Assembly: GCA_964187785.1 (NCBI GenBank)
Contig: OZ076413.1
Location: 46,376,001-46,440,000, forward strand
Direction of reading: 5' to 3'
DNA: 64,000 bases
From: Amphiscolops sp. MND2022
Taxonomy: Eukaryota
Below are positions 15,780-64,000 of the stretch, piece after piece. A program made the position numbers and the translations under genes. Within the stretch, counting starts at the first letter, position 1; each line of letters begins with the position of its first letter. The notes beneath the pieces were generated by a model. The model was not told the origin of the DNA. It saw nothing but the letters and a program-made list of their open reading frames with translations, and did not search any database.

Positions 15780-16260
15780 CGGGAACTAACAACATTACCC
15801 TGCCTAGCACATTACAACGGAAGCAAAGAAAATATTGAAACCACCGATGCTTGCAAAACTGGATTGGGGATAGCACTATGGCAAAAGCAAGGAAATGGGG
15901 AACTAAAACCAATAGCATAAGTCAGCTACCTAAACGATGTCGAAACAAAATGTTCCATCGGCGATCTAGAACTGCTAGCCGTCGTCTGGGGTCTAGAAAG
16001 GTTTCGATTTCACCAATACGGAAAACAAATCCATCTATTCTCGGACCACCAAGCACTAGAACCCCTTCTAAAACGGAATAAAACGAACAAACAAAATAGC
16101 GCACGACTAACGAGATGGTTAGACAGACTAAACCACTTCGACATCTGTTTAAAACTCACCGCCGGTAAAGAAATCAAATTTATAGATTTCAATAGTCGTA
16201 ATTCTAGCAAAAATCCAGAATCGGAACAAAATTACGCAGAAGAATTTGTCATTAACGCCA
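15780..16260 (+). pseudogene. pol: Gypsy RNase H relic
   Basis: TDACKTGLGIALWQKQ, ELLAVVWGLERFRFH, FSDHQALEPLLK and RLTRWLDRL motifs across frameshifts. Confidence 0.85.
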
Positions 16261-20318: not shown

Positions 20319-22508
20319 CATTAGAGTGCACAGGCAAGCCTTATTTGCTCAAAGCGCAACATAGTGCTTTCAATATCTTGGATTCCACGACCATACCTTT
20401 AACCGTGCAAAATTGGCAAATTACGTCATTTGTCCCGGATTCCACGGATTTAGTCGTGGATTCCAGTAACAAATGCTTAGCTGTACGACTTTCGGCATGC
20501 AGCGGTGTCCCGGATTCCACAAAAACGTAAGTTTTGCGAAATGAACCAATCAGATTGCAGAAATCATAAATTTCCTGTATTCCACGACTTTATGCTTGAC
20601 GCGATACGCGGCATATTTTCTTGAATTAATTTCAAGTGGAAGACTGAACAAACAATATTATGCACACTTTTTCGTATATTAATTCAAAATGATTCAGACA
20701 ATCACACCAATATCACACAAAATTTTGAGATTTTTCAGTTTAGTACCAGTTTTGAAAAAACTGCCAGATCATCACAATCTGCCATTATTTGATGACATGC
20801 TTTAATTTTGGTACCAGTCATGAGTATCTCTCTTTGTACTTCTTGGACTTTTCGTGTCAATCAAAACAATTTCCTTTGATATAAGATTGATTCAATTCAA
20901 GTTCTTCTGCCTTTCTAATAATGATCATGCAAAATGAATATTAAATAACACAAATAATCGTATTTTTCAGTTTAGTACCAGTTTTGAACAAACTGCAAGG
21001 TCATCACAATCTGCCATTATTTGATGACATGCTTTAATTTTGGTACCAGTCATGAGTATCTCTGTTCGTACTTCTTGGATTTTTCGTGTCAATCAGAACA
21101 ATTTCCTTTGATATAAGATTGATTTAATTCAAGTTCTTCTGCCTTTCTAATAATGATCATGCAAAATGCATATTATATAGCACAAATATTCGTATTTTTC
21201 AGTTTAGTACCAGTTTTGAACAAACTGCAAGATCATCACAATCTGCCATTATTTGATGACATGCTTTAATTTTGGTACCAGTCATGAGTATCTCTCTTCG
21301 TACTTCTTGGACTTTTCGTGTCAATCAAAACAATTTCCTTTGATATAAGATTGATTCAATTCAAGTTCTTCTGCCTTTCTAATAATGATCATGCAAAATG
21401 AATATTAAATAACACAAATAATCGTATTTTTCAGTTTAGTACCAGTTTTGAACAAACTGCAAGGTCATCACAATCTGCCATTATTTGATGACATGCTTTA
21501 ATTTTGGTACCAGTCATGAGTATCTCTGTTCGTACTTCTTGGATTTTTCGTGTCAACCAGAACAATTTCCTTTGATATAAGATTGATTTAATTCAAGTTC
21601 TTCTGCCTTTCTAATAATGATCATGCAAAATGCATATTATATAGCACAAATATTCGTATTTTTCAGTTTAGTACCAGTTTTGAACAAACTGCAAGATCAT
21701 CACAATCTGCCATTATTTGATGACATGCTTTAATTTTGGTACCAGTCATGAGTATCTCTACTCGTACTTTGGGTCTTTTCGTGTCAATCAAAACAATTTC
21801 CTTTGATATAAACTTGAAATAATTTAAGTTCTTCTGCCTTTCTAATAATGATCATGCAAAATGAATATTATATTACACAAAGATTAGTATTTTTCAGTTT
21901 AGTACCAGTTTTGAAGAAACTGCCAGATCATCCCAATCTGCCATTATTTGATGACATGCTTTAATTTTGGTACCAGTCATGAGTATCTCTATTCGTACTT
22001 TTTGGATTTTTCGTGTCAATCAGAACAATTTCCTTTGATATAAGATTGACTTAATTCAAGTTCTTCTGCCTTTCTAATAATGATCATGCAAAATGAATAC
22101 TAAATAACACAAATTTTTAGATTTTTCAGTTTAGTACCAGTTTTGAACAAACTGCCAGATCATCACAATCTGCCATTATTTGATGACATGCTTTAATTTT
22201 GGTACCAGTCACGAGTATCTCTATTCGTACTTCTTGGATTTTTTGTGTCGATCAAAACAATTTCCTTTGATATAAAATTGAATTAATTTAAAATGATTAC
22301 TCAAAATCAGCGGACCAATCAGAGAGCAGCGGCAAAAGTGTCATTATAGCAGCAGTATTGGCGTGGAATCCAGGACAAGCACTGTCGTGGAATCCAAGAC
22401 ACGCTTAGCATCAAAGAGAAGTTTTGTCCTGGATTCCACGACTTTTCTCAATTTTCGTGTCCCCGATTCCACGAAAACAGCAAAATAGCTTGCCTGTGCA
22501 CTGTAATG
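20319..22508. mobile_element. Non-autonomous CACTA/EnSpm (CMC)-like DNA transposon, copy 1
   Basis: 21-bp TIR CATTA(G/C)AGTGCACAGGCAAGC, 2-bp TSD gt/gt, repeated GGATTCCAC subterminal motifs in both orientations, no transposase. Confidence 0.8.
20731..22290 (+). repeat. 232-bp satellite, about 6.7 units, with partial dimeric higher-order structure
   Basis: Unit starts at 20731, 20963, 21195, 21427, 21659, 21890 and 22122. Confidence 0.95.
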
Positions 22509-31992: not shown

Positions 31993-32858
31993 CACTAGAG
32001 TGCATAGGCAAGCTAAATTTGCTCAAATCACAATTTTGTGCTTTCAATACCTCAGATTCCACGACCATATCTTAAACCGTGCAAAATTGGCAAATTACGT
32101 CATAGGTCCCGGATTCCACAAATTTGGTCGCGGATTCTAGTAACAAATGCTTAGCTGTACGCACTGTCGGCATGCTGCTTTGTACCGGATTCCACAAAAA
32201 CGTAAGTTTTGCAAAACGAACCAATCAGTCTGCAGAATTCATAAAATTCTTGGATTCCACAACTTTATGCTTGACACGATGCGCGGCATGTCTTCTTGAA
32301 TTAAATGCTTTGAAAAAACATAAATTTATGCACTCTTTTTCGTATATTGATTCAAAATGATTCAAACTACCACCCCATTTTTACACAAATCTTCGTATTT
32401 TCCAAAGTTTTGTACCAGTTTTGAACAAACTGCCAGATCATCACAATCTGCCGTTGTTTGATGGCATGCTGCAATTTTGGTACCTGTCATGAGTATCTGT
32501 ATTCGTACTTTGGGATTTTTCGTGTCAACCAAAACATTTTTACCTCAAATAATATTGATTTAACTTCTGTCAATCAAACAATTTCAGTTGATATAAAACT
32601 GATTTAATATAAGTTCTTCTGCCTTTCCAGTAATCATCCGACGGATCATTCATAATCAGCGGACCAATCAGAGTGCAGCGGTAAAAGCGTCATTATAGCA
32701 GCAGTATTGGCGTGGAATCCAGGACAAGCACTGTCGTGGAATCCAAGACACGCTTAACATCATAGGGAAATTTTGTCCTGGATTCCACGACTTTCGTCAA
32801 TATTCGTGACCTGGGTTCCACGACAAGCAGCAAAATTGCTTGCCTATGCACTGTAACG
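31993..32858. mobile_element. Non-autonomous CACTA-like element, copy 2, inserted in BEL gag
   Basis: Left end CACTAGAGTGCATAGGCAAGC, right end GCTTGCCTATGCACTGTAACG, 2-bp TSD at/at. Same GGATTCCAC motifs and about one satellite unit. Confidence 0.85.
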
Positions 32859-46066: not shown

Positions 46067-49000
46067 CATGAACTCCTCAATACCTTCCCCTTCACCTTTT
46101 GAGATACCTTATATTAAAAATGCAAAAGTAGTAAAAACTGAAATAAGCATTTTTAAATAACATTGTTTACAATTATTCTCAACCACTTTCATGTGAAAAT
46201 GACCCCACAGACTTGAAACAATTCCTCTTATTAGAGAACATCTGGATACATACCTCTTCTATATTAGACATAGATCTACAACTGTCTCTACGGAATATCC
46301 ATCTTTCCAAATTACTTTTCCGCAACAAGAAACCTCGTCTATTCAAACATATAGAAGAACGATAAACCCAATTATTCTCCAAATTCCTGTTAAAGAAGTT
46401 TTCTATGCTTTTCTAAAGAGAGTAAAAGAATACAACTTAGCACTTGAAAACCCAAAATATAGCCCAAATGCACTTGAAGAACTTGAACAATATATACACA
46501 AGTTTGAGGTGGAAGATATAAAAGAATAAGTATAACTCAAAATAATCCTCCTCATTGGTTACAAGCAGATATACTACGAATACACAATTTCCTATATCAT
46601 TATTTCAAAGATATAACATTAAACGAACAAACAATACCTCAAACTAAAGTGATAACCTTATTTCTTAGAAAATGTTTCAAATTTAATTATCAACTATTAT
46701 GGTCAAAACACGATCAACGTGCTTTCGCAGCATTTCATAATCATTTTACAGCTGACGAATGTTTACCGTTCATCATAGATAAACAAAATGAACAGCCTTA
46801 CTTTTTCAAACTAGATAAAATAAAACAACAAACCGTGGATTTCTTATCTTTTGATCCTCGTTTAATCACAGAAAACAATTTTCATGATGATAATAGACCT
46901 TATCGTTTCGAACAGAATATACAAGAACAACTAAACCTAATTACCAACAATGACAATAACAATGAAGAAGACGACAATAACAAGGAAGAATACATATTTG
47001 AAAACCAAAATGAAATTCGCAATGAAGATATCGTACCCCACATAAATGAAAGCAATGCAAGTGAGTATACCACTCCAGAACCTACAACTTCAGCACAAAA
47101 TGCATCACAAACTGAGACATCAACAACCTCTCATTTTGTTAGAATTCCAACTAGGGTTGTTAGTCCAAGACAAAATACACATGATCCACAATCATACTTA
47201 GACACATCTCCACATCGTAATTTCTCCTTTGATCTTCCAACTCACCCAGATGAAGTAGTACAAGATGAAACTAAAAATATAACTTCTACCCGTGATACTT
47301 CTGTTAATGTTTTATCACCTACACAGATTATTTCTAAAAATACACGAAATACAACTCGATCTATATATGATCCTCCATCAATTCCTTCTGTTTTTCAGCA
47401 GTCGAATAAAACAATTCAATCAGAAAATAATCGTAATAGTAACCAACAAACTTCTAGTTAACACTATGATCCATTTAGATATTCCATCTTTCCAACATCT
47501 AATACAAATATTCAAACAAACAATACTCAAAATGTTTATCAACCTAAAATTACTAATTTAATGACACAACACCCATAGGAAACATTTATTACAAACAAAT
47601 TCCTCACAAAGTAATTTTGCTTTACAAAATCAAAGAACATCTTATTCAAACACTGTACAACCTCCTCAAAGAAGATCCCAAAATCCTCCACTTTAGCATA
47701 TATCTACTGACCCTCTATATCAAATGAATCAACATTTAACTTACAACCCTACTACAATTTCACCACCCGTAAACATGATACAACATGTAGTTCCCCCACC
47801 TCAGTATACGCCAATACAACAAGATAACATCATAAATACTTCAGCTTCAATACCAGAACCTATGAAACCTTTGGAGGGTTTACACCCCAGAAGATTATTT
47901 ACAGCAAGTTTAAGCAAGACTGACCTTTCCATAGGTGAAGAACCTCAAAATATTCCTATAAAATATAGGTCAGTGCATAATAGACGCATGGCTTATATAC
48001 AATGTTCTTTAATTGAAACAGCTCTTGATTGGTACACTAATCTCCATATATAATATACACAACAATGGACTTCATTTGTACAACTGTTTAAAAAACAATT
48101 TTCATCTAAAAAACAGCCTATTACGCACAAGTAGAAGCTATGTCACTCATGAAAAAAGATAATGAAACAGTACGCCATTTTGCTCTTAGAGTACAAAAAT
48201 TAGTTAAAAAGGGATGGTGCAATGAAAGTACATCTACCATAAATCTCAAAAACAATGAAATTTTCACAAAAGGATTACCTAAAAGACTTAGCGCACAAAA
48301 GACAAGTTAAACATGTATCAAGAGTACTTGAACCATCAATACCATTTCACACACTCGTTCGACATGTTGATTCTGAGGACATCGCTAATGAAAAAATAAG
48401 AACAAATGACCTAGCTTTAGAAATAAACAAAGTTTCAATTGAAGATGATACTAACAACGAAGAATCCGAAAATGACCATATAATGGTTACTCAATCTGGA
48501 GGCCCGAATAACAAAAGCAAACCAGCCTACAAAAAATATTGTTGTTATTGTCATAAAAACAATCATCGTATTTCAAATTGTTATCAGAAACAAAGCGAGG
48601 AAGAGTATCAAAGATAAAAAAATCAGAGATCAAGAACTCCTCAACAATCCTTTGTACAATACTTCCGTAGTAAACCCAGTAATTCACAAGAATATCGAAA
48701 TGAAAATAAAACTGATTATTCTTCTAGAGATAACGACCGTAAAAGATATAATCAAAACAACTACTCCTACTACAATGACCAATATAGAAATAACGACAGA
48801 TACCGAAGCAACAGTAGAGATTATTCACAAAATACTTATCGATCTAATTCTCGACAAAGATATTCCGATAGATCTCAAAACCCATACCCATCTAGATCCC
48901 GATATGACTATCATTATCAAAGAAGAACTCCATCCAGATCTCCATATAGATCAACCTATAGAAACAACTCCAATTATAGATATAATTCACGATCAAGATA

Positions 49001-49250
49001 TAGATCTCATCTCTATCACAAGGAAACTCTTTTAGACGATACAATTACCCGTATATATCTCCATCTAGACCAAAAGATTACAGATCACGATCTAGAACAC
49101 CCTCACAAAACAGACAACAAAATAGAATAAATCAAGTAGATGTTAAATCTACCAACGACAAAGATAGTACTGAATTTGAAATTCATACATGCCAAATAAC
49201 TGAAATTGCAAATACAATTACTCCTTATAGTTGGTTTCATCCACTATATG
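46067..49250 (+). pseudogene. gag: gag relic of the outer gypsy
   Basis: N/Q/T-rich fragments, LIETALDWYTNL, knuckle YCCYCHKNNHRISNC (48538-48580), and an R/S-rich tail. Confidence 0.7.
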
Positions 49251-50329
49251 TACATGCTTCTGAAGGAAAAGACAACATATTACCTTCAAAATTAAAAATC
49301 CTATTCCTCCTATTAAATTAGAAATCCTATTAAATATAATATTCTTGGAACACCTTTCTTCAAGAAAATTATTCAAAATATAGACTTCCAACAAAATATT
49401 ATGACATACAAAGAACAACATCCAAAACTCCCTACATAACACTTTTCTCAACATTTACAGAAAAGGATTACCCATATATCTCATACATTTATACTATTAA
49501 ATGTAAAGAGCCAATTCACTTCAAACCAAGATCAGGAAAGACTTTACACTTCCCAACCAAAAAAATTATCTTAACATGCACTTTGAACTGGAAGATAAAA
49601 CGAAATTTTATCCATCAATTCCATATACATACTTCTTACAAAAATTTAAATATATTTTTCACTTCTTAGACATGATAGTCAACGACAAAAACAAAGACTC
49701 CTGCTCAACAGTAATTCGAAATTTTTTATCTCACCCAGCTACACTACCACGAGGAATTATTGGATATATAGAGATCCCTATTATTCAAACAACACCTCTC
49801 CATTTTAGAATTCATGCTGTAAACTCGCTTATTCATTCAGTAATACATGCCTTTCTTCCTGATACTACCATTCCAATTGACAAAATGACTACACATATAT
49901 GAATTTATGTACTCGAGTAATCCCACAGTCCTTATTAGAAATCAACAAAATAGAAATAAATGATAAAACACTTCAATTACCCATACCTTCTGTCACAGGA
50001 AATCTTCGACCCTCAGATAAAAATAGAAAAGATTTTCCTTCACTACCATATACTGCAGAAAATCAACAATTTATAAAAAAAGTTCAACTTTGAATATTTA
50101 GATTTGACTGATACTGTAAATATGAATATGTAAACCTCTGCAATGTTCTTTTCATCAATCAAAATTGTTACGCTAAACATCGAAATGACGTAGTAAAAAT
50201 TTCTACTCCATCCAGAATTAGAATTAGAGAAAATTGTAAACTTCAAACACAAAGACCCTCTAAAGTACCAATTCATTACAGAGATAGACTAAACAAACTC
50301 TTAATAGAACTTAAAAAATAAAACATATT

Positions 50330-50527
50330 AAAACAAATTGCTCCACGCCAGATGAAAAACACACTATTGGAACAACATTTTTAAACCCTTCAATCATTAT
50401 CCCCAAAGGAGACGCAATAAAAGTTGTTTTAGATGCTAGACATTTAAACTCAAACACTAATCAAGAACTTGAATCTTAGCCCATTGAAAGTTTATCCCCT
50501 CAATTAGCTAGAGCTAACAAAAAATAC
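50330..50527 (+). pseudogene. pol: Outer gypsy RT, left part
   Basis: PKGDAIKVVLDARHLNSNT...QLARANKKY, ending at the insertion point. Confidence 0.85.
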
Positions 50528-51249
50528 TATAGCGAACCAGGCACTGCCATAGGCGGAGAGAGATGGCGAAAGGCAGATGCTTGGAAAGTAAATTATTAAA
50601 ACAACTTGCAACGCAACAATAACTTGTATCTTTATTATTTATCGCTCTTGAGAGTTCTTGAGAGTGCTCGAGAGAGCAATATAATGATTTCAAATATTTA
50701 ATCCCCTCTCTGCCGCTCAGCCGCAGCACTCCATTTCTACAATGTTTACATTATTAAGTAACTTGAGGCGCTTTTTAATTTCATTTATAAAAGAGTTGGA
50801 GACGAATTTCTTCTTATTCTTTACTATCGCGAATGCTTTCCCCACATTCCCCTCGTGTGCAATAAAATTATTAAACGTTAAAACGTGAAAACGAGTTTCT
50901 GTTGCAGATGCTTTCCCCACATTCCCCTCGTGTGCAATAAATAATTAAACGTTAAAAATTGAAAACGAGTTTGAGAAAAAGATTCGAACATTAGCAAACT
51001 CAACCGCTGAAATGTAAGTTGCTTCCCATACTAGTAATTTTATCTTGAAATTTTATCTTATCTGTTCACTAAATGAAGATAACTTAACTAAATTTTCTTG
51101 TCATAAATTAACTTTTCCTATTTCTAAAATTCTTTTCGTAGAAATCTTATAGAGATAACCCAATCATCAAAACACCAGCAATCGCCCTGCGCATTCGAGC
51201 TATAGTAACATTAATAGCAATATTGAACTAGGAAAAAGCGATTGTTAAA
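50528..51249 (+). repeat. 5' LTR
   Basis: Starts TATAGCG, ends GTTAAA. Contains a TATA (tttataaaag, ~50805), an internal ~90-bp duplication with AATAAA, and a candidate splice donor GTAAGT at 51014. Confidence 0.95.
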
Positions 51250-51250
51250 T

Positions 51251-51268
51251 TGGTGACAAGGGTGGGAT
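51251..51268 (+). promoter_or_regulatory. Primer-binding site, tRNA-Leu-like
   Basis: TGGTGACAAGGGTGGGAT, 1 nt after the LTR. Its complement ATCCCACCCTTGTCA-CCA fits the ATCCCAC...A-CCA end typical of tRNA-Leu. Confidence 0.7.
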
Positions 51269-51947
51269 ACCTCTATAAACAGTAAATTTTAATATTTTTT
51301 CAAGACTATTGTCAACCCCGTATTGTCCGGCCCTGACCAAACCTCCCAAAGTAAAGCCTAGCCTGCCTTGGCAGTGTACAACAGGAATTAGATCCTAGTA
51401 GGCCTTTTAAACTCGCCTCCACGGCTGATTAGAAAAGGAACCTTTCCCTTTGTTAATTTCACGTTTCTCACGAAACCTAATGGTTAGTAGCGTGTAAAAC
51501 AAACGGTCCAGTAGTAATTTGTTTCTCCATCAACCTGAATTAAATTAGTGAGAGAATTGAAGCGGATTTAAACTGTTTTCAAGTTTTTTTTATCCCGGTA
51601 AAATTAAATGTTCCATTGGACCTAAGCACTGAGAAAGCCAGTCTCAATATAGTGCTCCTCACCAGATGCAGCTTCTATGAAACAGGAAGGTCATAGTGCC
51701 CAGTATAAGAATCCAAATTAGCTTAAGGGGCGCTGGTGAGGGAAGGCTGCGCAGTCTGTTATCAGGCTAGCGTTACTAGCTGAAGACAGGTTCCAAGGAA
51801 CTTATAGGAGTCCTTACCGGGCGTGAAAATTTCGATGGAGAAACAATGAACTAGTAAACCGTATTAACTCTTCTTCCTAAATCAAATCTTTTCCAAACTT
51901 TGAGCGTCTAAATAACGTGTTTCCTATTATTTTCACTTACATCATCA

Positions 51948-52217
51948 ATGCCTTGCTCACACGTTCAAAACACTCAGTTACCACTATATGTAATACCCCA
52001 GCAAAACTACCGACCCCCTAGTCCACCACCGTCGTACGATCATGATAGAGAGACTACTGTTTTTTCGCCGTGTGTCATGTTTTTATTAGTTTTTGTTAAT
52101 GCCCTAGCACTTGTCATAGTAGTTGTAGCGATTTGTGGACTCTCCTTTGAAATCAGCAAAGAGAACATAACTTGCCGTAGGGCCGAAGCCCTAACTGTTG
52201 ACTATCACCAGAGCTAA
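51948..52217 (+). CDS. Accessory sORF1: 89-aa single-pass membrane protein with LPLY and PPSY motifs
   Basis: ATG start; LPxY at aa 11-14, PPxY at aa 27-30, hydrophobic helix at aa ~42-65, sequon NIT at aa 73-75. Confidence 0.65.
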   Translation: MPCSHVQNTQLPLYVIPQQNYRPPSPPPSYDHDRETTVFSPCVMFLLVFVNALALVIVVVAICGLSFEISKENITCRRAEALTVDYHQS

Positions 52218-52225
52218 AATTTAAT

Positions 52226-52633
52226 TTGTGTTTTTCGATGTATTCTTTTAGTATCCCGGTTTCGATTCTCACTAACGTACCGTCAGAGAACCTCATAATA
52301 CCTTGTTATTTTTGCCAAGCAAAACTTTTCAAAATCCCTTTCTCGCATCGACCAGAAGGACGTTTCACCGCGCACCAACTAACTTTTCACATACAGCTAG
52401 AGGCGGTTCATTATTGGCAGCATAAAAACACTTACGAAAAGTCTCCTTACAGTCCTCTGGACCACGCGACAAGTGTAAAGGCATCAAGTGCCTCCTTTTT
52501 CCCGCATTTAGCTCAAAGTTGGTATTCACAGATTGAATTCATTGCCTCCCATGTCTCTGATTCCTCCCTGTTGAGATTTCATGACTGCCAAATGCCAAAT
52601 TTATTTTATAGTACTCCTATGCTCCGCCGCTAA
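52226..52633 (+). CDS. Accessory sORF2, up to 135 aa, unknown function
   Basis: Open frame filling the gap between sORF1 and gag, with a CYFC motif and several His residues. Start codon uncertain. Confidence 0.4.
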   Translation: MCFSMYSFSIPVSILTNVPSENLIIPCYFCQAKLFKIPFSHRPEGRFTAHQLTFHIQLEAVHYWQHKNTYEKSPYSPLDHATSVKASSASFFPHLAQSWYSQIEFIASHVSDSSLLRFHDCQMPNLFYSTPMLRR

Positions 52634-52681
52634 AACATTTGAACCTACAGACTCCGAAATTTCGTAACCGTTTGAATTAAA

Positions 52682-53905
52682 ATGGCAACGCCATCTACAC
52701 CGTCAACTACAGGTACTTCCACCGCCTCAGTGTCGACACCCTCGCCAGCAACAACGACAACAAGTGCGAGTGTTAGTGCCGGTGGGAGTAGCTCGGCTAC
52801 TCCGGGGCACTCGTCAGCTTCCACAAGCACAACAATGAGTACTACGACAACTCCCACAGCCTCATTTTTTACTATCCCTGGCACGTCTAGGCCACCTCCG
52901 AATACACCATATATTGCCCCGCTCCCGTCATGCTTGATGCCCGAATCCTTCACGGGTAAGGGCGATTTTGAAGATTACCTTCAACAATTCAACACCGCAG
53001 CACTTTTATCAGGCTGGTACTCGACCGCGCACGATAATCGCCCCCATTACTTCGCATTACGCCTGAGAGATAATGCGCTCCACTTCTACACAACTCTGTC
53101 CGCCGCCCAACAAACAAATTTTGATCAATTGATTGACGCTTTCCGACAGAATTACACTACCAATGGGGACATTTTGAAGGCCAGGTTGAAAGCTGCTAAA
53201 CAGCAGCCTAACCAGGATATTTCAGCATTCCTGTGTGACGTGCGCACATTAGCTCGACGGGCATACCGAGACACGCCTGGCCTGATTGACCCTATGGTAA
53301 TGACATGTTTCATAGAGGGCCTTAAAGATAAGACGCTCCGGTTGGAGTTGCGAAAGGCCAAACCAGCAACAGCTGATCAGGCTTTAACGTTGGCGATGGA
53401 ACTCAATTCGTTCCTAGAAATTGAATGTGGGGGCGCGAAAGCGTCTCAACTCGTCAATCGGGTATCTACTGACGATACTCCTGCAAGTGATCTAATGACG
53501 GAGTTTGTTCGAACTCTACGGCAAGAACTGCAGAGGAGCCGACCACAGAATAGTGGTTAAGGGCCTCAAGGGGACGGTAGGCGCAACAATAGCCCCTCAA
53601 ACCTAAGACCCCGATCTGAAAGTAACGATTCTACTAAGAGTAACCCATCTGTCCGCTTCCAGTCTGCCCAGAATTCCTCCAATTATCGAAACAACGAAAG
53701 TGGGAACAATAAGCGAAACAGAGAGAGTTCACCTCATCCTTCAAAGAAAAGGGATGACAAAACAACAGAAAGTAACAAGAAAATGTGTGATCGTTGCAAG
53801 CGTACTAATCACGCAACAAAGGACTGCAAGGCGTGTTACAATTGCCTAAAGGTCGGTCACTTTCGAAGGGACTGCACCGCCGATAAAAAGAAACCTTTAA
53901 ACTGA
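52682..53905 (+). pseudogene. gag: gag, 407 codons with one premature TAA at 53558
   Basis: S/T-rich N-terminus, PESFTGKGDFEDYLQQF capsid-like region; the frame continues past the TAA to CDRCKRTNHATKDC and CYNCLKVGHFRRDC, then TGA at 53903. Confidence 0.92.
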
Positions 53906-53945
53906 ACGAGTCTACGCTCACGGGTCGAAGCGCAGACGAGACCAC
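53896..53945 (+). promoter_or_regulatory. -1 ribosomal frameshift signal
   Basis: T TTA AAC heptamer (53896-53902) just before the gag stop, followed by a gtct-a-cgct/agcg-c-agac stem. The -1 frame is open into protease. Confidence 0.85.
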
Positions 53946-56310
53946 CGAAAATGGCCCACAAATTCAGACGCTCAACTCTGTGATAGATCACAGAAGTGTT
54001 TTTGTCCAGTTATCTATATGTGGTAAGATAATCGAGGCTGTGTGTGATAGTGGAGCAAGCGTGTCTTGTCTGAGTTCGAATGTCTTTGACCAAATTAAAC
54101 AGTTACAGAAATTAAAGCTGGAGCCAACGCAAGAAAAGCTCGTGGCAGCTAACAAACTACCAATTCAAACGCACGGCAAAGTGCTTCTGTTGTTGAAAAT
54201 TGGACCTAAACAGTTCGAACATGTTTTTCATGTCTTGGAACATTCAGAAGCCGATTGTTTGATCGGATTAGACTTCCTAAAGAAACATAGGTGTGACCCA
54301 TTGATTTCAAAAGACGTACTCCGGTTGGATGATGACACGCAAGTGCCCTTGTATCATCGAGAAATCGATGAGGGAACGACTTCCGTATTTCGAGTAGTCG
54401 TATCAGAGACCGTTTCGGTACCGGCAGGTCACTCGATGATAGTGCCTGCGCTTATGCAAGACTGGAAACGTCCGTTGCATGAAACAGTGTCCATATTTGA
54501 ACCGAATGATCGGTTCGATGGGACAAAGGAGGCAGTTGCTCCAAACATGCTGTTCAACTTGGCCGAGCCAACCGTACCCATGACGGTGGAAAACACGGGC
54601 AATGAACCACTCACAATTTATGAGAAAACGACATTGGGCACCTCTGAAATCCTTCCCATTAGAGCCCTGAGGAGCATCTCTCCTCCGAAAAGCGAAGCGA
54701 TGGGACGTGAGAAGCTGGACCCAGCTTATGATTTGAAATATGTGATTGACTCTGTCAGTCCCGAAATACCGCTGAAATTAAAAAAACAATTCGGGGATCT
54801 TGTCAATGAATTTGAAGATGTGTTCTCCAAGAACCAATGGGATATAGGTCGTTGTGACGCCACTAGTCACAAAATCGATCTCCTACCTGGCTCAAAACCA
54901 AATAAATTACCGAATCGCCGCATGCCATTGCACTACAAAGAAGACCTGCAAGAAAATATAGATGCCTTCTTGGATAAACAATTTATTGAACCCTGCCACA
55001 GTCCATACAGCGCACCGGCAATGCTCGTACCAAAAAAAACGACAAGCTGCGCCTAGTAATAGATTATAGGCAATTGAACAATCAAACGATAAAGTCCTGC
55101 TGGCCGATTCCGTCAATTGAAGAAATTTTCGACACGCTGGAGGGAAGTGCGTTCTTCTCAACAATCGATATGTCTTGGGGATTTTATCAAATACCCATGG
55201 ATGATAAAAGTCAAGATTATACTGCTTTCAGTACACCGTTTGGCTCTTTCAAATGGCTCCGGATGCCAATGGGCCTTTCGAACAGTCCACCTATGTTTCA
55301 GAGTTTAATGGAAGTAGTTCTTTCCAAGTTGATCTGGAAAACTGTCGTCCCGTACTTAGATGATTGTATCATTTTTGCGGCAACACCCGACGAACATATC
55401 CGTAGGATTCGAGAAGTCCTAGTTCGCTTCCGGGCAGCGAATCTGAAAATTAATCCTCTGAAATGTGAGTTCTTTAGAACAAAAGTACAGTTTCTGGGCC
55501 ATGTCATTAGTAAAGATGGTCTACAGGTGGACCCCGAGAAAATTGCTGCTGTCAAACAGTTCCCCGTTCCGGCCATACAAACTCATGTCAAATCATTTCT
55601 GGGACTTTGCTCATATTATCGGCGATATGTGAAGAATTTCGCCGATATTGCAAGACCACTACATAAGGCCAGTGAGACAACTACCACCTTCAAATGGACA
55701 CCTGAAGCACAAGACGCTTTCGACAAACTGATTAACGACAACACCAATTTTAGCTTTTCCATCTATGAAAGAGCCGTTTATTTTGTACACGGATGCTAGT
55801 TTGTCAGGAATGGGGGCAGTCTTAGCTCAAGTTCAAGACGGAAAGGAACGAGCTATTTGTTATGCTTCCAAAGCTCTTTCACGGTCTCAAATGAATTACT
55901 CAGCTACTAAACGCGAACTCCTGGCGGCTGTACATTTCACACGTCACTTTAAACATTACCTACTGGGCCGTAAGTTCATTCTCAGAACTGATCACAGCGC
56001 TCTGCGCTGGTTGCATAACTTCAAAGACCCAGATGGTCTTGTAGCTCGTTGGCTTGAAAAACTAGCCCAGTTTGACTACGATGTGGAACACCGACTAGGG
56101 AAATCCATCGGTCATGCCGATGGACTTTCTCGAATTCCTACAAAACTGGTTTTGCTCGTCTCAGAGGAGCCCAACGTCGCGGGGGTTGAACAAACAGGCG
56201 AGTGGCCTAACGCTCAATCCGCGAGAGATATCAATGACATACCGCCCGCCCCGGCTCCCATTCCGGGGGACGTCTTAGAACGTCTACCTTCCAAGTGTAG
56301 AGTGATTTGA
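53896..56310 (+). pseudogene. pol: pol: protease, RT and RNase H (two frameshifts, stop at 56308)
   Basis: VCDSGASVSC (protease); IDYRQLN, LRMPMGL and YLDDCII (RT); LYTDASLSGMGAVLAQ, ELLAAVHF and RTDHSAL (RNase H). Breaks at ~55035 (A-run) and ~55740. Confidence 0.95.
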
Positions 56311-56373
56311 TCCAAATCATCGGAACCCCTACGGCGAAGGGACGTTTTTGAAGTGGCAACGGAACCGAAGAAT

Positions 56374-56787
56374 TACACCGAGATCAATGGCGACTTGTTT
56401 GACTCAAAGGACTCAATAGCCCATTGTGTCTCAGCGGATTTCAAGATGAGTTCGGGGATAGCTCGGTCTATCAAACGGAAATATCCCACTGTGCATCCGG
56501 GACGTGTCCGATATTACGATGTCCCTCTGTGGACTCAGTGGCTACCGGAAACCAAGAGGTATATTTATCACCTTCTGACGAAGGATCGTTTCTACCATAA
56601 ACCGACATATGCGGCTCTTCGAGCGCATTTGGAACGCATGCGTGAACATGCCGAAGCACACGGCGTGATGGCGATTAGCATACCTCAAATTGGTTGTGGC
56701 CTTGACCAGTTGGAATGGCCTTTGGTACGCACCATAATCCAAGAAATCTTTGAACCCTCGGACTTTCGCATCACTGTCTACTTTCTT
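56374..56787 (+). CDS. TARG1/OARD1-class macrodomain embedded in pol between RNase H and the integrase region
   Basis: GDLF..DSIAHCVSADFKMSSGIA, YIYHLLTK..YHKPTY, IPQIGCGLDQLEW and ITVY align with human OARD1 motifs; same reading frame as the RNase H ORF. Confidence 0.93.
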
Positions 56788-56859
56788 GATCCTTCCACAC
56801 CCGTTTTGAACCATGATGAAACTGAAATACTCGAGGCGCCCGATACAGAGACCAACAAC

Positions 56860-57112
56860 CCTACCGAAAACATCCGCAAAGGACAAGATGCTGATGAATC
56901 GTTACACTTAGAACGAGAGTGGGTACGACGAGGCCGTTTACCACAAAAAAATGATTTGAAGGGATCACCCGAGCTCGCGTGGAAGCTGTATAATCAATTT
57001 CACAGTCTATACCTCTTGAATGATGTATTATGTCGGAAATTTGAACCCACCGGTGGCGATCTACCGTTCCTACAGCAAGTAGTGCCTCCGGCCCTTGTAG
57101 ATGATGTCCTGT
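56860..57112 (+). pseudogene. pol: Pre-integrase segment truncated by a deletion
   Basis: IRKGQDAD..EWVRRG..LYNQFHSL...VLCRK..QQVVPPALVDDVL normally precedes the integrase HHCC finger. No HHCC or DDE core follows. Confidence 0.8.
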
Positions 57113-57130
57113 CGTCCCGTTCTCTTTCAG
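57112..57130 (+). promoter_or_regulatory. Candidate env splice acceptor
   Basis: cgtcccgttctctttcag| ends at 57130, 16 nt before cgccATGc. Confidence 0.6.
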
Positions 57131-57146
57131 AAAATTCCCAATCGCC

Positions 57147-59414
57147 ATGCCTCCTTGTGCATTTTGGGTTGTGTGTCTTCTTACCATAGACATTCCTCTC
57201 TCGTGCGCTCAGGTTCAGTTCAGTACTCATCTCAACGACAACTTGGAACAACCTGTTTTCAAAAAGGGTGCTGCTTTCGTATTCAAATACCAAGCAGTCA
57301 CCTCTGAGAGTGAGAGTAAGGTTCGTGTATTTTCCCCTTTTCCTCAGATGCCAACAATCAGCCTCACCCGTGCTCTAGCAGTTGTAGAGGCCTTTAAAAC
57401 CAAACCCCGCGGCATCGGTTCCATGTATGTTAACACACGCTGTGAATTTACGAACTTCAACAACACTTACACCCTACTTCTCGAGCAACTAGAGACGCGA
57501 GTCCGCTTTCTGCAGTTGGAACTAGCAGCCGCTACAGAGGAGGAACCCACCTTGATGGAAGTAGCGAGATCATTTATTCCACCTAGCATGAAGAAAGATA
57601 GTGCACCTAAACGACAACGTCGTGCTTTTTGCGCTATCGCCGCAATAGCAGCTGGAGCGGGAATGATTCTGGGTGAACCCGTCAAAGAGGCAGCGTGCAC
57701 CGCGCTCTCCATTTTCAATTTATGCCGCAATGACGATGCCCTGTCAAAAGATGTCGATCAAATTATGACCAAACAGAAAACAATAATCGAAACATTGCAA
57801 CGCGTACAGAGTCAAAATGATCAAAACTTCTTCTTACTGGGAAATGAAATCAAGGGCACTCAAGAGAGCGTCACGAATTTCAGGGATAAAGTGGGAGAAC
57901 GCTTCCAGCAAATTGAATATTATTTAGTGAACGCTACTAGATACTTGACTGGAAGTAGTCTAGAATGCGATAAAGTAATAGTTCGACATATTCATCTTTT
58001 GCAGTATATTCGTAATTATATTTATCAATTGGGTACCTTGTACACACATTTGAAGTCGTATCGTGCCGCTTTTTACGCTTATCGTATTTCGCTCTTCACG
58101 ACAATTTCATCCTTAGCTGGTGGTTATATTACACCACAATTTCTGCTTCCGAAACAGGTTGCTGAAATTGTCAAAGAGTTGGCCGAAGACGAAGTTCTGC
58201 GGGGAACTAAATTGTCTCCTGCAATTCGCCCTGGTTTTGAGGCAATTCACTACGAGATTCAACTTGTCCTCGAAGTAACTCAGATACCTCGTGGAATCTC
58301 GGTAATACTTGGGATCCCGATGAATTCAAAATCGTCGACATTTGATATCTATCACGCGACCCCTTTATATCAGCCCAACAATGACCAGAAAACGGCCTCT
58401 CTTTTCAGTTTCACAAATCCGTTCCTCGCACTCTCCACCGACAATAGCAGATTCGCAGAGCTAGGAGCCAATACGCTGCAACAATGCTCGGGTAATAACA
58501 GAATAAAACTTTGCCGGAAGGGTTTCTCTACTACCACGGACGAAACCCTGTTGTACCTGGGCTCTCTGTTTTATAACTATGACATCCCAGCCCTGCGAAA
58601 TTGCGAGGTTAAAACCGTTCTGTTTCCGGACGCTCCTCAAGCCTTCTATCTGGCCGAAGGGATGTACCACATCATCTCTCGAGCCCCACATCTTCAGATA
58701 AAGAACGATAGTCGAGCTACAGACCTGTCCATCTCTACCATAAATTGTCAGGCTTGTGTGATGCGCCCCAGCTGTTCTAGTATCATTTCATTTAATCAAG
58801 GAGATCTCGTTTTGTATCCTGATATGGATTTTTGTGAAACAAACCCTGAACCTTTTCTAGCTTCCATTGAATTAACCCCCTCACTTAATAAGGTCTTTTC
58901 GCATGTCCCATCGATTAGTAACGCTGATTTTCATGCCTATTCTCTGGGTGAAGCACGTCAGTCAGTCCTAGGTACTTTACGCCTTGAACTGGCTGAGCTA
59001 CCAGACGTCGAACAAATGACTGAAGAAACTCTTGACGAGTTAACTCAACCAATCGCTAGCTACTATTCAGCAATCTCGCCAGCCACGTCAGCAGCCTTGG
59101 AATCTTATCTGCCCACTCGAACGGCTATCCTTATGTCAACTCTGTCGATTACTATCTCGCTGTTAACATTCTCGATAAGCTTCACGCTTTTCCGACGACA
59201 GTGGCGACGCCTCTTTACTAATCCACAAATATTCTTTCGGGGTCATTCAGGACGTTTCATCCACATTGTCAACACCGCAAGTGATGAATATGAAGAAACG
59301 GATCCAACTTTTTTGTACCTGACCGTTATGGAGTTTCAAGCTCTTGTTTCTCTGGCAAGAGAAACAATTAATCAACCTATACCTCCTAACACGAATTACA
59401 CTACACTTTTCTGA
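57147..59414 (+). CDS. env: Envelope glycoprotein, class I fusion protein (baculovirus F / errantivirus Env-like), 755 aa, intact
   Basis: Signal-peptide-like N-terminus; furin site RQRR (aa 156-159) followed by hydrophobic AFCAIAAIAAGAGMILG; heptad region; GYITPQF, VILGIPM..FDIYHATP and a Cys-rich region; TM from aa ~659; cytoplasmic tail. Confidence 0.9.
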   Translation: MPPCAFWVVCLLTIDIPLSCAQVQFSTHLNDNLEQPVFKKGAAFVFKYQAVTSESESKVRVFSPFPQMPTISLTRALAVVEAFKTKPRGIGSMYVNTRCEFTNFNNTYTLLLEQLETRVRFLQLELAAATEEEPTLMEVARSFIPPSMKKDSAPKRQRRAFCAIAAIAAGAGMILGEPVKEAACTALSIFNLCRNDDALSKDVDQIMTKQKTIIETLQRVQSQNDQNFFLLGNEIKGTQESVTNFRDKVGERFQQIEYYLVNATRYLTGSSLECDKVIVRHIHLLQYIRNYIYQLGTLYTHLKSYRAAFYAYRISLFTTISSLAGGYITPQFLLPKQVAEIVKELAEDEVLRGTKLSPAIRPGFEAIHYEIQLVLEVTQIPRGISVILGIPMNSKSSTFDIYHATPLYQPNNDQKTASLFSFTNPFLALSTDNSRFAELGANTLQQCSGNNRIKLCRKGFSTTTDETLLYLGSLFYNYDIPALRNCEVKTVLFPDAPQAFYLAEGMYHIISRAPHLQIKNDSRATDLSISTINCQACVMRPSCSSIISFNQGDLVLYPDMDFCETNPEPFLASIELTPSLNKVFSHVPSISNADFHAYSLGEARQSVLGTLRLELAELPDVEQMTEETLDELTQPIASYYSAISPATSAALESYLPTRTAILMSTLSITISLLTFSISFTLFRRQWRRLFTNPQIFFRGHSGRFIHIVNTASDEYEETDPTFLYLTVMEFQALVSLARETINQPIPPNTNYTTLF

Positions 59415-59523
59415 AACCAACACCTAAACATATTCTTCTTTCTGTCTTTCTATCAATGTCATCATTTGTTTCATTTTTCAGCAAACTAGACACACTCAAC
59501 TCAGTTGATGAAAGTAGGATAGG

Positions 59524-59872
59524 TTCTAACTTTGTTAGAAGTCTCCCAACGCTTGCGTTGGTGTTTGTCTTACCACTTCATTGTGTGTAGCCCAATTTGG
59601 TGTATAATTAATTTGAGGACGTCCCTCAAACCTTCTCACTTATTGCCTTGATCTCCCCGTTAGTATGCACCTTTTTAGCCTGTCACAAGTATCCTAGTCT
59701 GTTTCCCATGCAGCTAGTGTAGTTAATGAGATTATCGTCTCCTAGTTGCTTATGTATATCAACTAGTGCGCTTAAGTTCATCACTCTTGATGTATCCTAG
59801 TTGTGTCCCAACCTCAACTAGTGTAGCAAAATAACAGTCCCAGTTTCCCAGTTGTATCTCAAACGCAACTGG
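59524..59872 (+). other. Hairpin cluster including a four-unit stem-conserved, loop-variable array
   Basis: Array stems at 59694-59717, 59742-59766, 59797-59821 and 59848-59872; further hairpins at 59524-59540, 59546-59561 and 59612-59630. Confidence 0.85.
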
Positions 59873-59976
59873 TGCAGCCGCCACAAGTTACTCCTCATCT
59901 ATGTTAGTCATTTGGCTACAGCGTCATTCGAATAAATGTTCTTCGTCAAAACTAATCACACGCATTCTAAAGGAAG

Positions 59977-60999
59977 GTGTTTCTAACGATTCGTTGTTAC
60001 AGGTACAAAATTGATGCCGCAGACAATTCTCCAGCTCCATTCTTGCTCTCCGATGGGCGGGTACACCATCTGGCCCGTGGCCACATCGTCCGTGTCCTAG
60101 ATGTTATGGACTATCGTGTCATACGATGTAACCCACATCGCCAAACAGTCATGATCCAAAAGATTAATTCTAATGACCGCCCCTTTGGCAGAAACGCTAC
60201 TGAACTCTGGTTGCCACCCCCGTTTAAATCGACTATTGCAATCGATGTAAATTTTGACCCAATTCCAATGGAGTGCGACTGTCCATCCCCCTTGCCACCC
60301 CGAGTATACCCAGATATGGTTGATGCGACAGTGGAGGCCTCCTTAGGACAGGACGAAAGTCTCGAGTTTTTGACCGAGGAGTTCAGTTCGGTACAAGACC
60401 TCCACAGTCAACTAGAAGAGGCTCGAAAAGCCTCCGAAGTTACATTCAACTTAATGAAAGAAAGTGTGGAGATGAGCCGCCAAAGAGCAGAGCATATTAC
60501 GGCTTTGGAGACAGAGATAGAGGGTTTTAAAGTTCGTCTGAAAAACTTAACGTAGGAAAATGAGTCGCTACTCCGTCACTTATTAGAGCAAAGTGCCGAA
60601 TTAAGCACTTTACGTCTGGAAACAGCAACGACGAGTAATCACCAGTTAACCACCAAAATGCTCTGTCACCAGATGTCTACATACCCCCCATCACTAGACT
60701 ACGTTGACAACAACCTTTTATTCCATCTTCTTTGCAGTCCGCCGACCTCAACCACAAAGGAATTGAAGGAAAATGCCCACCATTTGTTGAGGTTGATTCA
60801 CCCGGACAAAAATCCTTCTGTCTCCCCAGCGGTTGCCAAATTGGTACCGATAATCAAGGAAGCCCGGAATATCCTAACAGACCCGACCCTCAACAGGATT
60901 TACCAATGTTGTGGGATACAAGGTGTAAGACGTGCGCAAAGGCGCCTTCGGACCTGCATGGACTGTGATCCGCATGTCCGCAAATGGCTGGCCCCTTAG
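59977..60999 (+). pseudogene. Accessory ORF4: unknown N-terminal domain, coiled coil, C-terminal DnaJ J-domain (one in-frame TAG at 60553)
   Basis: ORFs 59977-60555 and 60658-60999 share a frame and the sequence between them is open. J-domain LFHLL...KELKENAHHLLRLIHPDKN...IIKEARNILTDPTLNRIYQCCG, with HPD at 60799-60807. Confidence 0.85.
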
Positions 61000-61018
61000 T
61001 TGCGAGGACGCAACCTTC

Positions 61019-61032
61019 AAAAGAGGGGGTGG
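61019..61032 (+). promoter_or_regulatory. Polypurine tract
   Basis: aaaagagggggtgg immediately before the 3' LTR. Confidence 0.8.
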
Positions 61033-61756
61033 TATAGCGAACCAGGCACTGCCATAAGCGGAGAGAGATGACGAATGGCAGATGCTTGGAAAGTAAATTA
61101 TTAAAACAACTTGCAACGCAACAATAACTTGTATCTTTATTATTTATCGCTCTTGAGAGTTCTTGAGAGTGCTCGAGAGAGCAATATAATGATTTTAAAT
61201 ATTTAATCCCCTCTGTGCCGCTCAGCCGCAGCACTCCATTTCTACAGTGTGTTTACATTATTAAGTAACTTGAGGCGCTTTTTAATTTCATTTAGAAAAG
61301 AGTTGGAGACGAATTTCTTCTTATTCTTTACTATCGCGAATGCTTTCCCCACATTCCCCTCGTGTGCAATAAATTATTAAACGTTAAAAATTGAAAACCA
61401 GTTTCTGATGCAGATGCTTTCCCCACATTCCCCTCGTGTGCAATAAATAATTAAACGTTAAAAATTGAAAACGAGTTTGAGAAAAAGATTCGAACATTAG
61501 CAAACTCAACCGCTGAAATGTAAGTTGCTTCCCATACTAGTAATTTTATCTTGAAATTTTATCTTATCTGTTCACTAAATAAAGATAACTTAACTAAATT
61601 TTCTTTGTCATAAATTAACTTTCTCTATTTCTAAAATTCTTTTCGTAGAAATCTTATAGAGATAACCCAATCATCAAAACACCAGCAATCGCCCTGCGCA
61701 TTCGAGCTATAGTAACATTAATAGCAATATTGAACTAGGAAAAAGCGATTGTTAAA
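61033..61756 (+). repeat. 3' LTR
   Basis: Direct repeat of 50528-51249 with about 15 differences. Confidence 0.95.
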
Positions 61757-61760
61757 ATAC

Positions 61761-64000
61761 AAATCAACTATTGATTTGATGTATGCATACGCTCATGCCC
61801 CATTAGACGAAGAAACAATCAAATTTACAGGATTTTCATCCGGAGATAAATTGTATACCTTTATCGGTGGATTCTATGGATTATAAGGACTCCCAAATTT
61901 TTTCACAAAACAAATGTCAACTTTCTTTCGAACACTTATAGACAAACGTTCTGCGTTAGTATATGTTGATGATATATTTTTATTAGCAGACGAAAAACAA
62001 GAAATGTTTGAACTTATCAAAGAACTCCATAAAATAGCAACAAAAGAAAATCTCAAACTTGCACCTGAAAAATCATTTTATATGTTACTTAAAGTAAAAT
62101 TCCTTGGACATGAAATAGGGAACAACACAATTAAACCAATCCCATCAAAAATTGAAGCCAGCAAAAGAATCCCATCACCAAAGGAAAAGAAAGATGTCAT
62201 GCAATTTTTGGGCAGTGTAAACTTTTATTCAAAATTCATTGAAAAACTGCATATAAATCTCAAACCATTCCATACCTTATTACATGATGATGTTAAATTT
62301 CAATGGACACCCGAATTAGAAAAAATATTTCAAGACGTTAAAAACGCAATGACAGCAGGAACTGAATTAACCATACCCAATACAAAACATCCATTTTTCA
62401 TAACAGTTGATGCTTCCTTAGTTGGTTTAGGCGCAGTCCTATTCCAAATGAATGAAGAAAATAAAATGAGAGTTATTTCTCACGAATACTTAATACACAA
62501 GAACAAAAATTATCAACACTAGACAGAGAACTCCTCGCAATAGTTTATGCATTACAAATTTATGAATTTCTCATCATTGGATCCCCTCTTCCAATATACA
62601 TCTTAACAGACCACAAACCCCTATTACACTGTTTTGCAAAAAAGGAAACCTTAGCCCAAGATTTTTATAGAGCACAAATGCACTTAACAAAACTCTCCAA
62701 ACTAAAAATTATTCAAACTCCTGGAAAAAATTAAATACATGCTTTCTAGAACTTTCACAAAAGAACAACTTCAAATACATCAATTACGACACAAACAATT
62801 ACCACCCCAAATCGATTTCTCTATCATGAAAGATAATCAACTCAAACCCGTACACTATTTAGTAAAACATGAAGAAATCAAATATAATCAAAAAAATGGT
62901 TGCCATCCAATTCTCGCTGATTATGGCGAAGACCAATTTTCCATCCGTATAAACAACAAAGGAGAAGACATTTATATAAAACCCTTAGATTCATTTTCTT
63001 TTCAATCTATTGTTCCATTTGAATCCAAATACGAGAGACCTCCAAAGAATCAAGCAAAATCACTTTTACAACAATCAACTATCGTCAATGACACTGATAT
63101 TCTTAGTGATGAAGATGAACCAAATCAATCACAAAAAACGAAGAATCAAAACACAAACACATTGAGAGAACAAACACTAGCAATACAGTACCCCACTAAA
63201 TCTAATTACTGTAATGAACAAGTTCCATTTTTTGATCCAACTTTCTTCAAATACAAAAGTATATTTTCAATATTTCTTCCTACCAGAAGACACTCAAAAA
63301 ACAATTGAAACTATAAAATCTCAACAAAAACAAGACCCTGTCTTACAAAAAGTTTACCATTGGTTAAAGACTAATAAGAGACCTTTCCGAATAGATCCAA
63401 CAATAGCAAGTAATTCCTCCCTATCAGTTTACTACAAACTCTTCAATCAACTGTACATCAACCATGATACAAAAATCATTCATATAAATTACCCTAACTT
63501 TCATGATTCAAACCCTAATCAAAAAGACAAAATATATTTACCATTTAAACTCTTTCATGCAGCTTTCAATAAACTTCATGCACATGGACACTCTTGAATT
63601 AAAATATCCATAAAAGCTTATAATCAATTTTATTTTCTACCATATTTAAATAAATGGATGTCGATTTTCATTCACGACTGTATTGAATGTCAACAAAACA
63701 AACACATCAATCAAAAAATTCAAACTGCAACAATACAAACTTTTTCAGAAAATGCTTCATATTTCAATTACCTAATATCAATTGATACAAAAGGACCTTT
63801 AAATCAATCATCAAAACAAAACTCAAACATTCATGTGATAGTAGACGCTTTCAGTCATTTTGTAGTAACAGTACCTGTTAAACAGAACAATGCTCAAAAC
63901 GCTGTCACTTCCCTATTACATCATTGGATTACTAAATTTGGACCTCCCATATCTTTAGTTACAGACCGTGGTTCAGAATACATTAATTCTGAACTTGCAA
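61761..64000 (+). pseudogene. pol: Outer gypsy RT (right part), RNase H and integrase relics
   Basis: KSTIDLMYAYAHAPLD, FYGL*GLP, VYVDDIF, ITVDASLVGLGAVL, RELLAIVYAL, IDTKGP, VIVDAFSHF and LVTDRGSEY. Confidence 0.92.

Follow-up and report, generated by a model that had tools for sequence, protein, structure and literature searches.

We found that positions 50528–61756 of a 64,000-nucleotide stretch of Amphiscolops sp. MND2022 contig OZ076413.1 (hereafter the window, i.e. the whole stretch of DNA that was analysed; positions are counted from its first letter, and all features of the element lie on the + strand) are occupied by a defective Ty3/gypsy provirus, with the integrase deleted and several stops and frameshifts. 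The best overall explanation is that the window holds a decayed copy from an env-carrying Ty3/gypsy lineage organized like a complex retrovirus; we put the probability of this reading at about 0.68. Comparison of copies makes it nearly certain that one architecture, namely long terminal repeat (LTR), primer-binding site (PBS), short open reading frames (ORFs) sORF1 and sORF2, gag, pol (protease, reverse transcriptase (RT), RNase H, macrodomain, integrase), env, hairpins, ORF4, polypurine tract (PPT) and LTR, is fixed across diverged families and that its four accessory modules are under purifying selection. Env-carrying gypsy elements have been treated as simple three-gene analogues of retroviruses. 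The lineage described here shows a 'complex' organization outside Retroviridae: it is recently active and has kept four accessory modules, along with a predicted two-acceptor splicing scheme, across deep divergence.

Conservation of the architecture

The genome searched comprises 1.07 Gb, and eight loci matching at ≥95% were taken as close copies. The window's family is called A; four diverged families, B to E, were examined through one or two copies each. Both leader ORFs, the macrodomain, env and ORF4 are carried by all eight close copies. sORF1 (101 codons) and sORF2 (143 codons) are open in every one of them and ORF4 is open as a single frame of 341–342 codons in seven, the stop that splits it occurring only in the window copy. 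Uninterrupted frames were found for env (788 codons) in 5/8 and for pol through the macrodomain (1,617 codons) in 3/8. The LTR pairs of the four scored siblings differ at 0/725, 0/725, 1/631 and 4/651 sites, which points to recent spread. Module order is unchanged in families that are only 30–58% identical, with pN/pS (nonsynonymous to synonymous differences) of 0.30–0.67.

ORF4 has 140 matches in the genome, down to ~30% identity, from which 50 long, non-tandem loci were picked by hand. At the expected distance upstream of these we found env in 43, the macrodomain in 41, sORF1 in 31 and sORF2 in 33; env, macrodomain and at least one leader ORF occur together at 30/50. These counts are lower bounds, since only the best candidates were scored in each search; two loci that had gone unscored or had been scored as without leader ORFs proved to have them when inspected. 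The lineage probably occurs outside this host as well, given that a metagenome contig of higher GC content from outside the genome carries an env 44% identical to that of the element, followed by a full ORF4 homologue (E = 1.5e–26) with its HPD motif kept. Scans of metagenome and viral contigs with ORF4 gave no direct match, and the outside ORF4 was found beside the env match.

One could suspect that the accessory ORFs are passengers, either captured host fragments or chance frames without function, and stops are indeed frequent in the accessory ORFs of single copies, the window copy included. However, between families A and B, where synonymous differences (pS) of 0.67–0.87 are near saturation, the ratio of nonsynonymous to synonymous differences (pN/pS) is 0.46 for sORF1, 0.38 for sORF2 and 0.43 for ORF4 (0.30 in the J part), with 0.29 for gag. 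The bootstrap intervals lie below 1 in all 12 comparisons (weakest 0.67). Values below 1 at near-saturated synonymous sites argue that the accessory frames are coding and largely refute the passenger explanation. The HPD, CxxC, HxxxH and catalytic residues are moreover largely invariant at 20–30% overall identity, and the order is fixed in at least five families and on the outside contig. We therefore regard passengers as extremely improbable. The preliminary description, made from the window sequence, had proposed at least three accessory modules; we found four, sORF2 with its CxxC..HxxxH pattern being the further one. It had also reasoned that the proposal would fall if independent copies lacked the accessory ORFs. 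These are kept, under purifying selection, in the close copies, in the diverged families and on the outside contig.

Predicted splicing

The DNA suggests that the lineage very probably uses three RNAs and a start codon made by splicing. The unspliced RNA would provide the leader ORFs, Gag and, by –1 frameshifting, Gag-Pol, while an AT-ending donor in the LTR would be joined to an acceptor of either env or ORF4; with G as the next base, the splice itself would make AUG. The predicted major donor, AT/GTAAGT (51012–51019; the slash marks the cut, at 51013/51014), is found 194–236 nt 5′ of the PBS in families A–D (4/5). The predicted phase-2 acceptors lie at 57129–57130 for env and at 60001–60002 (AG/G) for ORF4. 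ORF4 has no conserved ATG, and its conservation starts at a pyrimidine-rich phase-2 AG/G in 7/8 loci and in three more. Joining the AT-ending donor to this AG/G is predicted from the DNA to give ORF4 an in-frame AUG.

At the sequence level, the env genes of the families are an independent check on a splice-made AUG. In families B and E no in-frame ATG precedes the env signal peptide and a phase-2 AG/G is present, family C has both AG/G and an ATG, and family A has AG/A plus an ATG of its own. In family D the Phe-Arg codon pair is again present in env, as is an ATG of its own, and the acceptor falls under the pyrimidine threshold used. A comparable arrangement is described for env of the Drosophila springer subclade, where splicing to an upstream-exon AU dinucleotide completes the start codon (bioRxiv 10.1101/2023.08.03.551782). 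Several observations weigh against the scheme, which is a prediction from DNA: the family E copy examined has no AT/GTAAGT and its best AT donor is weak, one family E copy has a mutated ORF4 acceptor, and the outside contig has A and then a stop after its best phase-2 acceptor.

ORF4 encodes a J-domain protein

ORF4 (60003–60999; window stop at 60553–60555) combines an SH3/KOW-like barrel, a Pro/Cys linker, a coiled coil of ~95 amino acids, a J-domain (60727–60903, HPD at 60799–60807) and a CxxC tail. Its structural model (mean pLDDT 74) shows a five-strand barrel, the linker at low confidence, a 95-residue helix and the J-domain. A J-domain had been read from the window sequence, and the evidence agrees: it scores 30 bits against Pfam DnaJ (cut-off 27.8), the profile comparison gives E = 9e–10, the fold match has Z = 10.3 (rmsd 2.4, 74 aligned) and HPD is present in 11/13 ORF4 rows. 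With a J fold and HPD, the predicted protein is of the kind classed as class C J-domain proteins. Tandem arrays of ORF4 J-domain fragments also occur in this genome (G000), at C12:54715757–54743077 and C8:55925479–55932529, with ~1.25-kb and 0.6-kb spacing.

We suggest that ORF4 is probably a targeted Hsp70 co-chaperone, in which, going by sequence and model, the barrel would pick the client, the coiled coil would oligomerize and the J-domain would recruit Hsp70. Two features count against this. Helix II of the J-domain has diverged from cellular J-proteins, and the barrel, which may be only a common fold, matches Spt5/NusG KOW and Tudor domains equally well (Z = 7.0–7.7), so that its fold class is fixed and its function is not. 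No match to ORF4 was found in the Atlas at 0.9.

The hairpin array and the client of ORF4

Repeated stem-loops with GUNYCC motifs lie between env and the ORF4 acceptor (59694–59872). Of the hairpin array reported in the preliminary description, the repeats themselves are confirmed, as three strong hairpins and a weaker fourth, but as a whole the interval folds in a way that departs only mildly from expectation (z = –1.97). In families B–E we found 3–5 tetraloop hairpins whose stems vary with pairing kept, a count reached by 0/200 shuffles at each of 6 loci. In four families, with the stem sequence changing and every GUNYCC site counted whatever its stem, 15/24 sites fall in stems of at least 5 bp versus 10/212 control sites. 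On the sense strand GUNYCC is enriched in five families (0, 5, 4, 9 and 0 of 300 shuffles reach the count). DNA alignment of the interval across families is unusable, and Rfam gave 0 matches at E = 1 around the hairpins in 5 loci. The force of these figures is reduced in several ways. The motif was defined after inspecting these very sequences and the units are partly tandem duplicates whose counts are not independent, so the hairpin statistics overstate independence. In family A, GUNYCC is unpaired (0/7 in stems), and the outside contig has no GUNYCC array, so that the array is not universal.

By the predicted splice sites, the array would be kept in the genomic and env RNAs and removed only from the ORF4 message. 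The likeliest single client of ORF4 would be the element's own unspliced and env RNA, contacted through the array in a manner analogous to HIV Rev and its response element (RRE). We consider this doubtful; the topology of the array fits contact between ORF4 and the RNA without requiring it. With the same architecture and splicing, ORF4 could instead leave the hairpins alone and bring Hsp70 to a protein client: the capsid, a silencing complex of the piRNA or Tudor type or, by mimicking KOW, the transcription machinery. The array would then be a host-read export, localization or packaging signal similar to a constitutive transport element (CTE). Viral J-domains are known to act on protein complexes, as in polyomavirus T antigen, and CTEs lie beside the 3′ LTR. 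This alternative, whose chances are a little short of even, agrees with the Tudor-like as well as KOW-like fit of the barrel, with the retention of ORF4 on the outside contig without the array, and with hairpins that differ in shape between family A and families B–E while ORF4 is kept. Against it, the array sits in exactly the stretch that separates the ORF4 message from the genomic and env RNAs, and its motif is kept in five families. Taken in sum, a protein client with a host-read signal is at least as likely as action of ORF4 on the array.

The macrodomain of Pol

The preliminary description had recognized an ADP-ribose-type macrodomain in pol, and this is upheld. The domain (56368–56787, in the RNase H–integrase interval) resembles TARG1/OARD1; its identity is secured by whole-domain matches to human TARG1 entries of the PDB (E = 3e–31), the Pfam Macro score being below cut-off (21.4 versus 22 bits). 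The pair formed by Lys84 and an acidic residue at position 125 is kept in families A, B, C and E (4/5). These are the catalytic residues given for TARG1, where residue 125 is written Glu125 (PMC7050489); by our count, the PDB chain shows Asp, not Glu, at this position. The element's macrodomain shares with human TARG1/OARD1 similarity over the whole domain and the Lys84/acidic 125 pair, and differs in being fused into Pol.

We favour the view, with some reservation, that the macrodomain is an ADP-ribose eraser, which would strip viral protein, RNA or cDNA of ADP-ribose and thereby counter a PARP-type defence. ADP-ribosylation participates in L1 silencing (PMC4695847), which makes such an eraser plausible. 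The family D copy argues the other way, having Arg/Glu at the catalytic pair, and seems to have lost catalysis.

Related domains occur elsewhere. A larger second group in the same genome has a TARG1-like macrodomain straight after the protease (>100 matches, ~834-codon frames; P0206, P0210). Two public Ty3/gypsy-type Pol proteins (P0275, P0327) have one C-terminal to the integrase, and these differing positions suggest, on sequence grounds, independent captures. In four further public proteins (P0229, P0264, P0268, P0303) a TARG1-like macrodomain is fused to DNA ligase III-type domains.

Leader ORFs

sORF1 (51948–52217, 89 amino acids) has LPxY and PPxY motifs, a single strong transmembrane (TM) helix (residues ~45–63) and a short Cys-containing tail. 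A PY-motif membrane protein was thus correctly recognized earlier: PPxY or LPxY is found in sORF1 of 4/5 families. sORF1 may be a membrane adaptor for NEDD4-type ubiquitin ligases, serving budding or the removal of host surface proteins; we regard this proposal, made from its motifs, as tentative, and the one family in five whose sORF1 has no PY motif at all speaks against it. A FAST-like protein was also considered and rejected: Gly2 is absent in 5/5 sORF1 sequences and the N-terminus is proline/PY-rich. Nor does sORF1 have the traits of the FAST-like sORF2 of MDG1 elements, i.e. N-myristoylation, a short N-terminal ectodomain and a polybasic tail.

sORF2 (52238–52633, 131 amino acids) contains a conserved CxxCQ..LxxxHxxxH pattern, in which CxxCQ and HxxxH are kept in at least 90% of 26 rows at ~20–30% identity. 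This conservation makes a zinc-binding protein likely, and its role may be that of a regulator or a defence antagonist. sORF2 has no match in the PDB, none in the Atlas at 0.9 and a low recognition score, and belongs to no known family. In a family D copy, four ORFs are found in the leader (L040:938–2501), namely sORF1, a pair of sORF2 paralogues and one more ORF of 111 codons.

Env

Env (57147–59414) has a signal peptide, an RQRR furin site (57612–57623) followed by an Ala/Gly-rich stretch resembling a fusion peptide in its hydrophobicity, long helices and a TM helix (~59127–59183; C-terminal hydrophobic peak at 664). The last ~19 residues are lost in the window copy. A furin site of this kind is found in 33/36 aligned env relatives. 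Signal peptide, furin site, fusion peptide and TM anchor together form the layout given for F-type env (PMC13524379). We consider it quite likely, from this layout, that Env belongs to the furin-cleaved class I fusion proteins and would carry particles between cells.

Not all comparisons favour this. The Pfam family Baculo_F is recognized in only 4/36 env members (best E = 3.4e–8), and the window protein is below cut-off (17.4 versus 24.1 bits). The env model has a mean pLDDT of 49; the structures ranked highest against it are viral glycoproteins from several classes (TM-score ~0.1), with no PDB match at E = 0.001. The env profile, compared with PDB sequences, retrieves coiled-coil noise and one 'fusion protein' at E = 0.11. 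The assignment of env to a class is weakly supported by the sequence.

Structure, integration site and decay of the window copy

The LTR–PBS–leader ORFs–gag–pol–env–ORF4–PPT–LTR layout with a target-site duplication (TSD), as first described, is borne out. The 5′ LTR (50528–51249, 722 bp) and the 3′ LTR (61033–61756, 724 bp) are identical in 707/725 columns (14 substitutions, K2P 0.020). They start with TATAGC (50528–50534) and end with GTTAAA (61751–61756), so that the ends are non-canonical TA..AA, not TG..CA. A TATAGC start is also seen behind ORF4 on the outside metagenome contig (L058 tail). Flank comparison gives a TSD of 4 bp (ATAC, 50524–50527 on the left and 61757–61760 on the right), a length that fits the window copy and 4/4 scored siblings; a 5-bp TSD fits only 3/5 of these and was rejected. 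Two tRNA-Leu(UAG) genes in the genome have 3′ ends complementary to the PBS (51251–51268), and the PPT lies at 61019–61029. tRNA-Leu-like 3′ ends also form a long tandem array with ~296-bp spacing (G000:C8:35589243–35646296) and have 789 matches genome-wide.

In the window proteins, Pfam scores exceed the cut-off for gag, zinc knuckle, protease, RT, RNase H and DnaJ. Gag (52682–53905; capsid, zinc knuckles) and pol (protease, RT and RNase H at 53887–56310) overlap. As had been proposed, pol is in the –1 frame, and the overlap holds one slippery heptamer, TTTAAAC (53896–53902); no convincing stimulatory hairpin was predicted at the overlap. Against solved structures, the RT is closest to Ty3 (E = 2.9e–44), followed by the caulimovirus type (3e–32), foamy virus (2.6e–23) and HIV (3e–7). 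Judged by pol order, RT, LTR, PBS, PPT and short TSD, the element is a member of Metaviridae and not of Retroviridae.

The window copy is damaged by a gag stop (53558–53560), two small deletions in pol (near 55034 and 55731) and a pol stop (56308–56310), the loss of ~1.7 kb at ~57115, a deletion that takes 53 bp from the end of env, and the ORF4 stop. A remnant 5′ of the integrase is left at 56900–57116. The earlier view that the element has its integrase deleted holds for the window copy and not for its siblings, which carry the ~1.7 kb at this point, a complete integrase being present in a sibling piece.

The provirus is inserted inside the RT of another gypsy element. The interrupted element (47697–50527 and 61757–64000) is a degenerate gypsy-like retrotransposon with gag-like, RT and RNase H sequences. 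Elsewhere in the window we observed a perfect 81-nt inverted repeat without spacer (12921–13082); direct repeats with the same sequence over at least 300 nt, lying 4,362 bp apart (7421–7720 and 11783–12082), possibly the LTRs of a small young element; a 232-bp tandem repeat of 7–8 units (20613–22317) with a related single unit ~10 kb off (32406–32638); and a strong A skew with 1.2-kb internal duplications (15001–20000).

A possible regulatory logic

Joining these parts, one could imagine that regulation of the complex-retrovirus kind evolved independently in Ty3/gypsy elements: a splice-born AUG would give an early ORF4 regulator, which would use its RNA-binding barrel and Hsp70 on the hairpin array, while the macrodomain, the PY-motif adaptor and the zinc-binding protein would disarm host defences. 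As a whole this is improbable. If ORF4 did act on the hairpins, this would amount to an analogue of Rev/RRE outside Retroviridae; together with the macrodomain reading it would be evidence for an ADP-ribosylation-based defence against retroelements in an invertebrate-type host. The host pathways indicated are anti-retroelement ADP-ribosylation, Hsp70-dependent remodelling of retroelement RNA or of silencing complexes, and NEDD4-type ubiquitination. Each splice junction is predicted with single-base precision, and the domains can be assayed separately.

Comparison with known systems

Env-carrying Ty3/gypsy elements are widespread in animals (Chary and Hayashi, PMC13524379), and according to that paper the view of them as a narrow group is out of date. 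Another reading is that the lineage, though real, is already catalogued, as a set of Repbase/Dfam families or among the published 'ancient errantiviruses'. The paper lists 1,512 env-carrying gypsy elements, the public Pol proteins with a macrodomain noted above exist, and fish endogenous retroviruses are reported to carry macrodomain ORFs (PMC4977317 citing Basta 2009). However, macro (as a domain), DnaJ, accessory and ADP-ribos are all absent from the main text of PMC13524379 and DnaJ from its 7 supplementary files, and 'macro' there stands in species names at the 4 of 14 places inspected. None of the env, ORF4 and sORF2 relatives that were looked up bears a name. We consider it rather unlikely that the lineage has been catalogued. 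A literature search (excluding subscription journals, Repbase, Dfam and GyDB) turned up no report that an LTR element carries a J-domain ORF or that these modules are combined in one element. Env-bearing gypsy elements, leader or accessory ORFs in LTR retrotransposons and retroviral macrodomains are each precedented singly. What appears to be new, from the sequence, is the combination of modules, the J-protein and the predicted LTR donor with two phase-2 acceptors.

With the F-type env Ty3/gypsy elements, both 'ancient' and insect errantiviruses (PMC13524379), the element shares the gag-pol-env order, an env with furin site, fusion peptide and TM anchor, and multiple copies; a tRNA-Leu PBS also occurs there. 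Compared by description, errantiviruses are three-ORF elements whose RNase H–integrase bridge is a pseudo-RNase H or mini domains, and the paper's text mentions no macrodomain, leader ORFs or 3′ J-protein ORF. The present element is not limited to gag, pol and env and has four further conserved modules. The insect endogenous retroviruses (iERVs) of the Drosophila springer subclade (bioRxiv 10.1101/2023.08.03.551782) have in common with it an AU from an upstream exon that completes the env start codon. Unlike them, it has four accessory modules and one LTR donor that is predicted to splice to both the env and the ORF4 acceptor.

The MDG1/412 group (Voichek et al., PMC11952523) likewise has two short ORFs between PBS and gag, one of them a single-pass membrane protein, under purifying selection. 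In MDG1, env is absent and the membrane ORF is second, myristoylated and FAST-like with a polybasic tail, the other ORF being a helix-turn-helix protein. In the present element the membrane ORF is first, has no Gly2 and carries N-terminal PY motifs, and the other ORF has CxxC..HxxxH. Bdelloid rotifer LTR elements with an ORF3 (PMC5408684) are Ty3/gypsy-like and captured an F-like env or a GDSL esterase, DEDDy exonuclease or dUTPase. They differ in having other enzymes, usually one ORF3 each, and macro or DnaJ domains are not mentioned in the text of that paper. Epsilon-like endogenous retroviruses of fish (PMC4977317 citing Basta 2009) share a macrodomain on an LTR retroelement, and belong to Retroviridae, not Metaviridae.

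Our search found no homology between the accessory proteins of the element and retroviral accessory proteins. Among complex retroviruses, HIV has the Rev/RRE system, and foamy viruses have an LTR donor and 3′ accessory ORFs. The resemblance would be one of working: a 3′ regulator made from fully spliced RNA, structured RNA present only in incompletely spliced RNAs, and small membrane and zinc-binding accessory proteins. The difference lies in descent, as the RT of the element is far nearer to that of Ty3 than to those of foamy virus or HIV.

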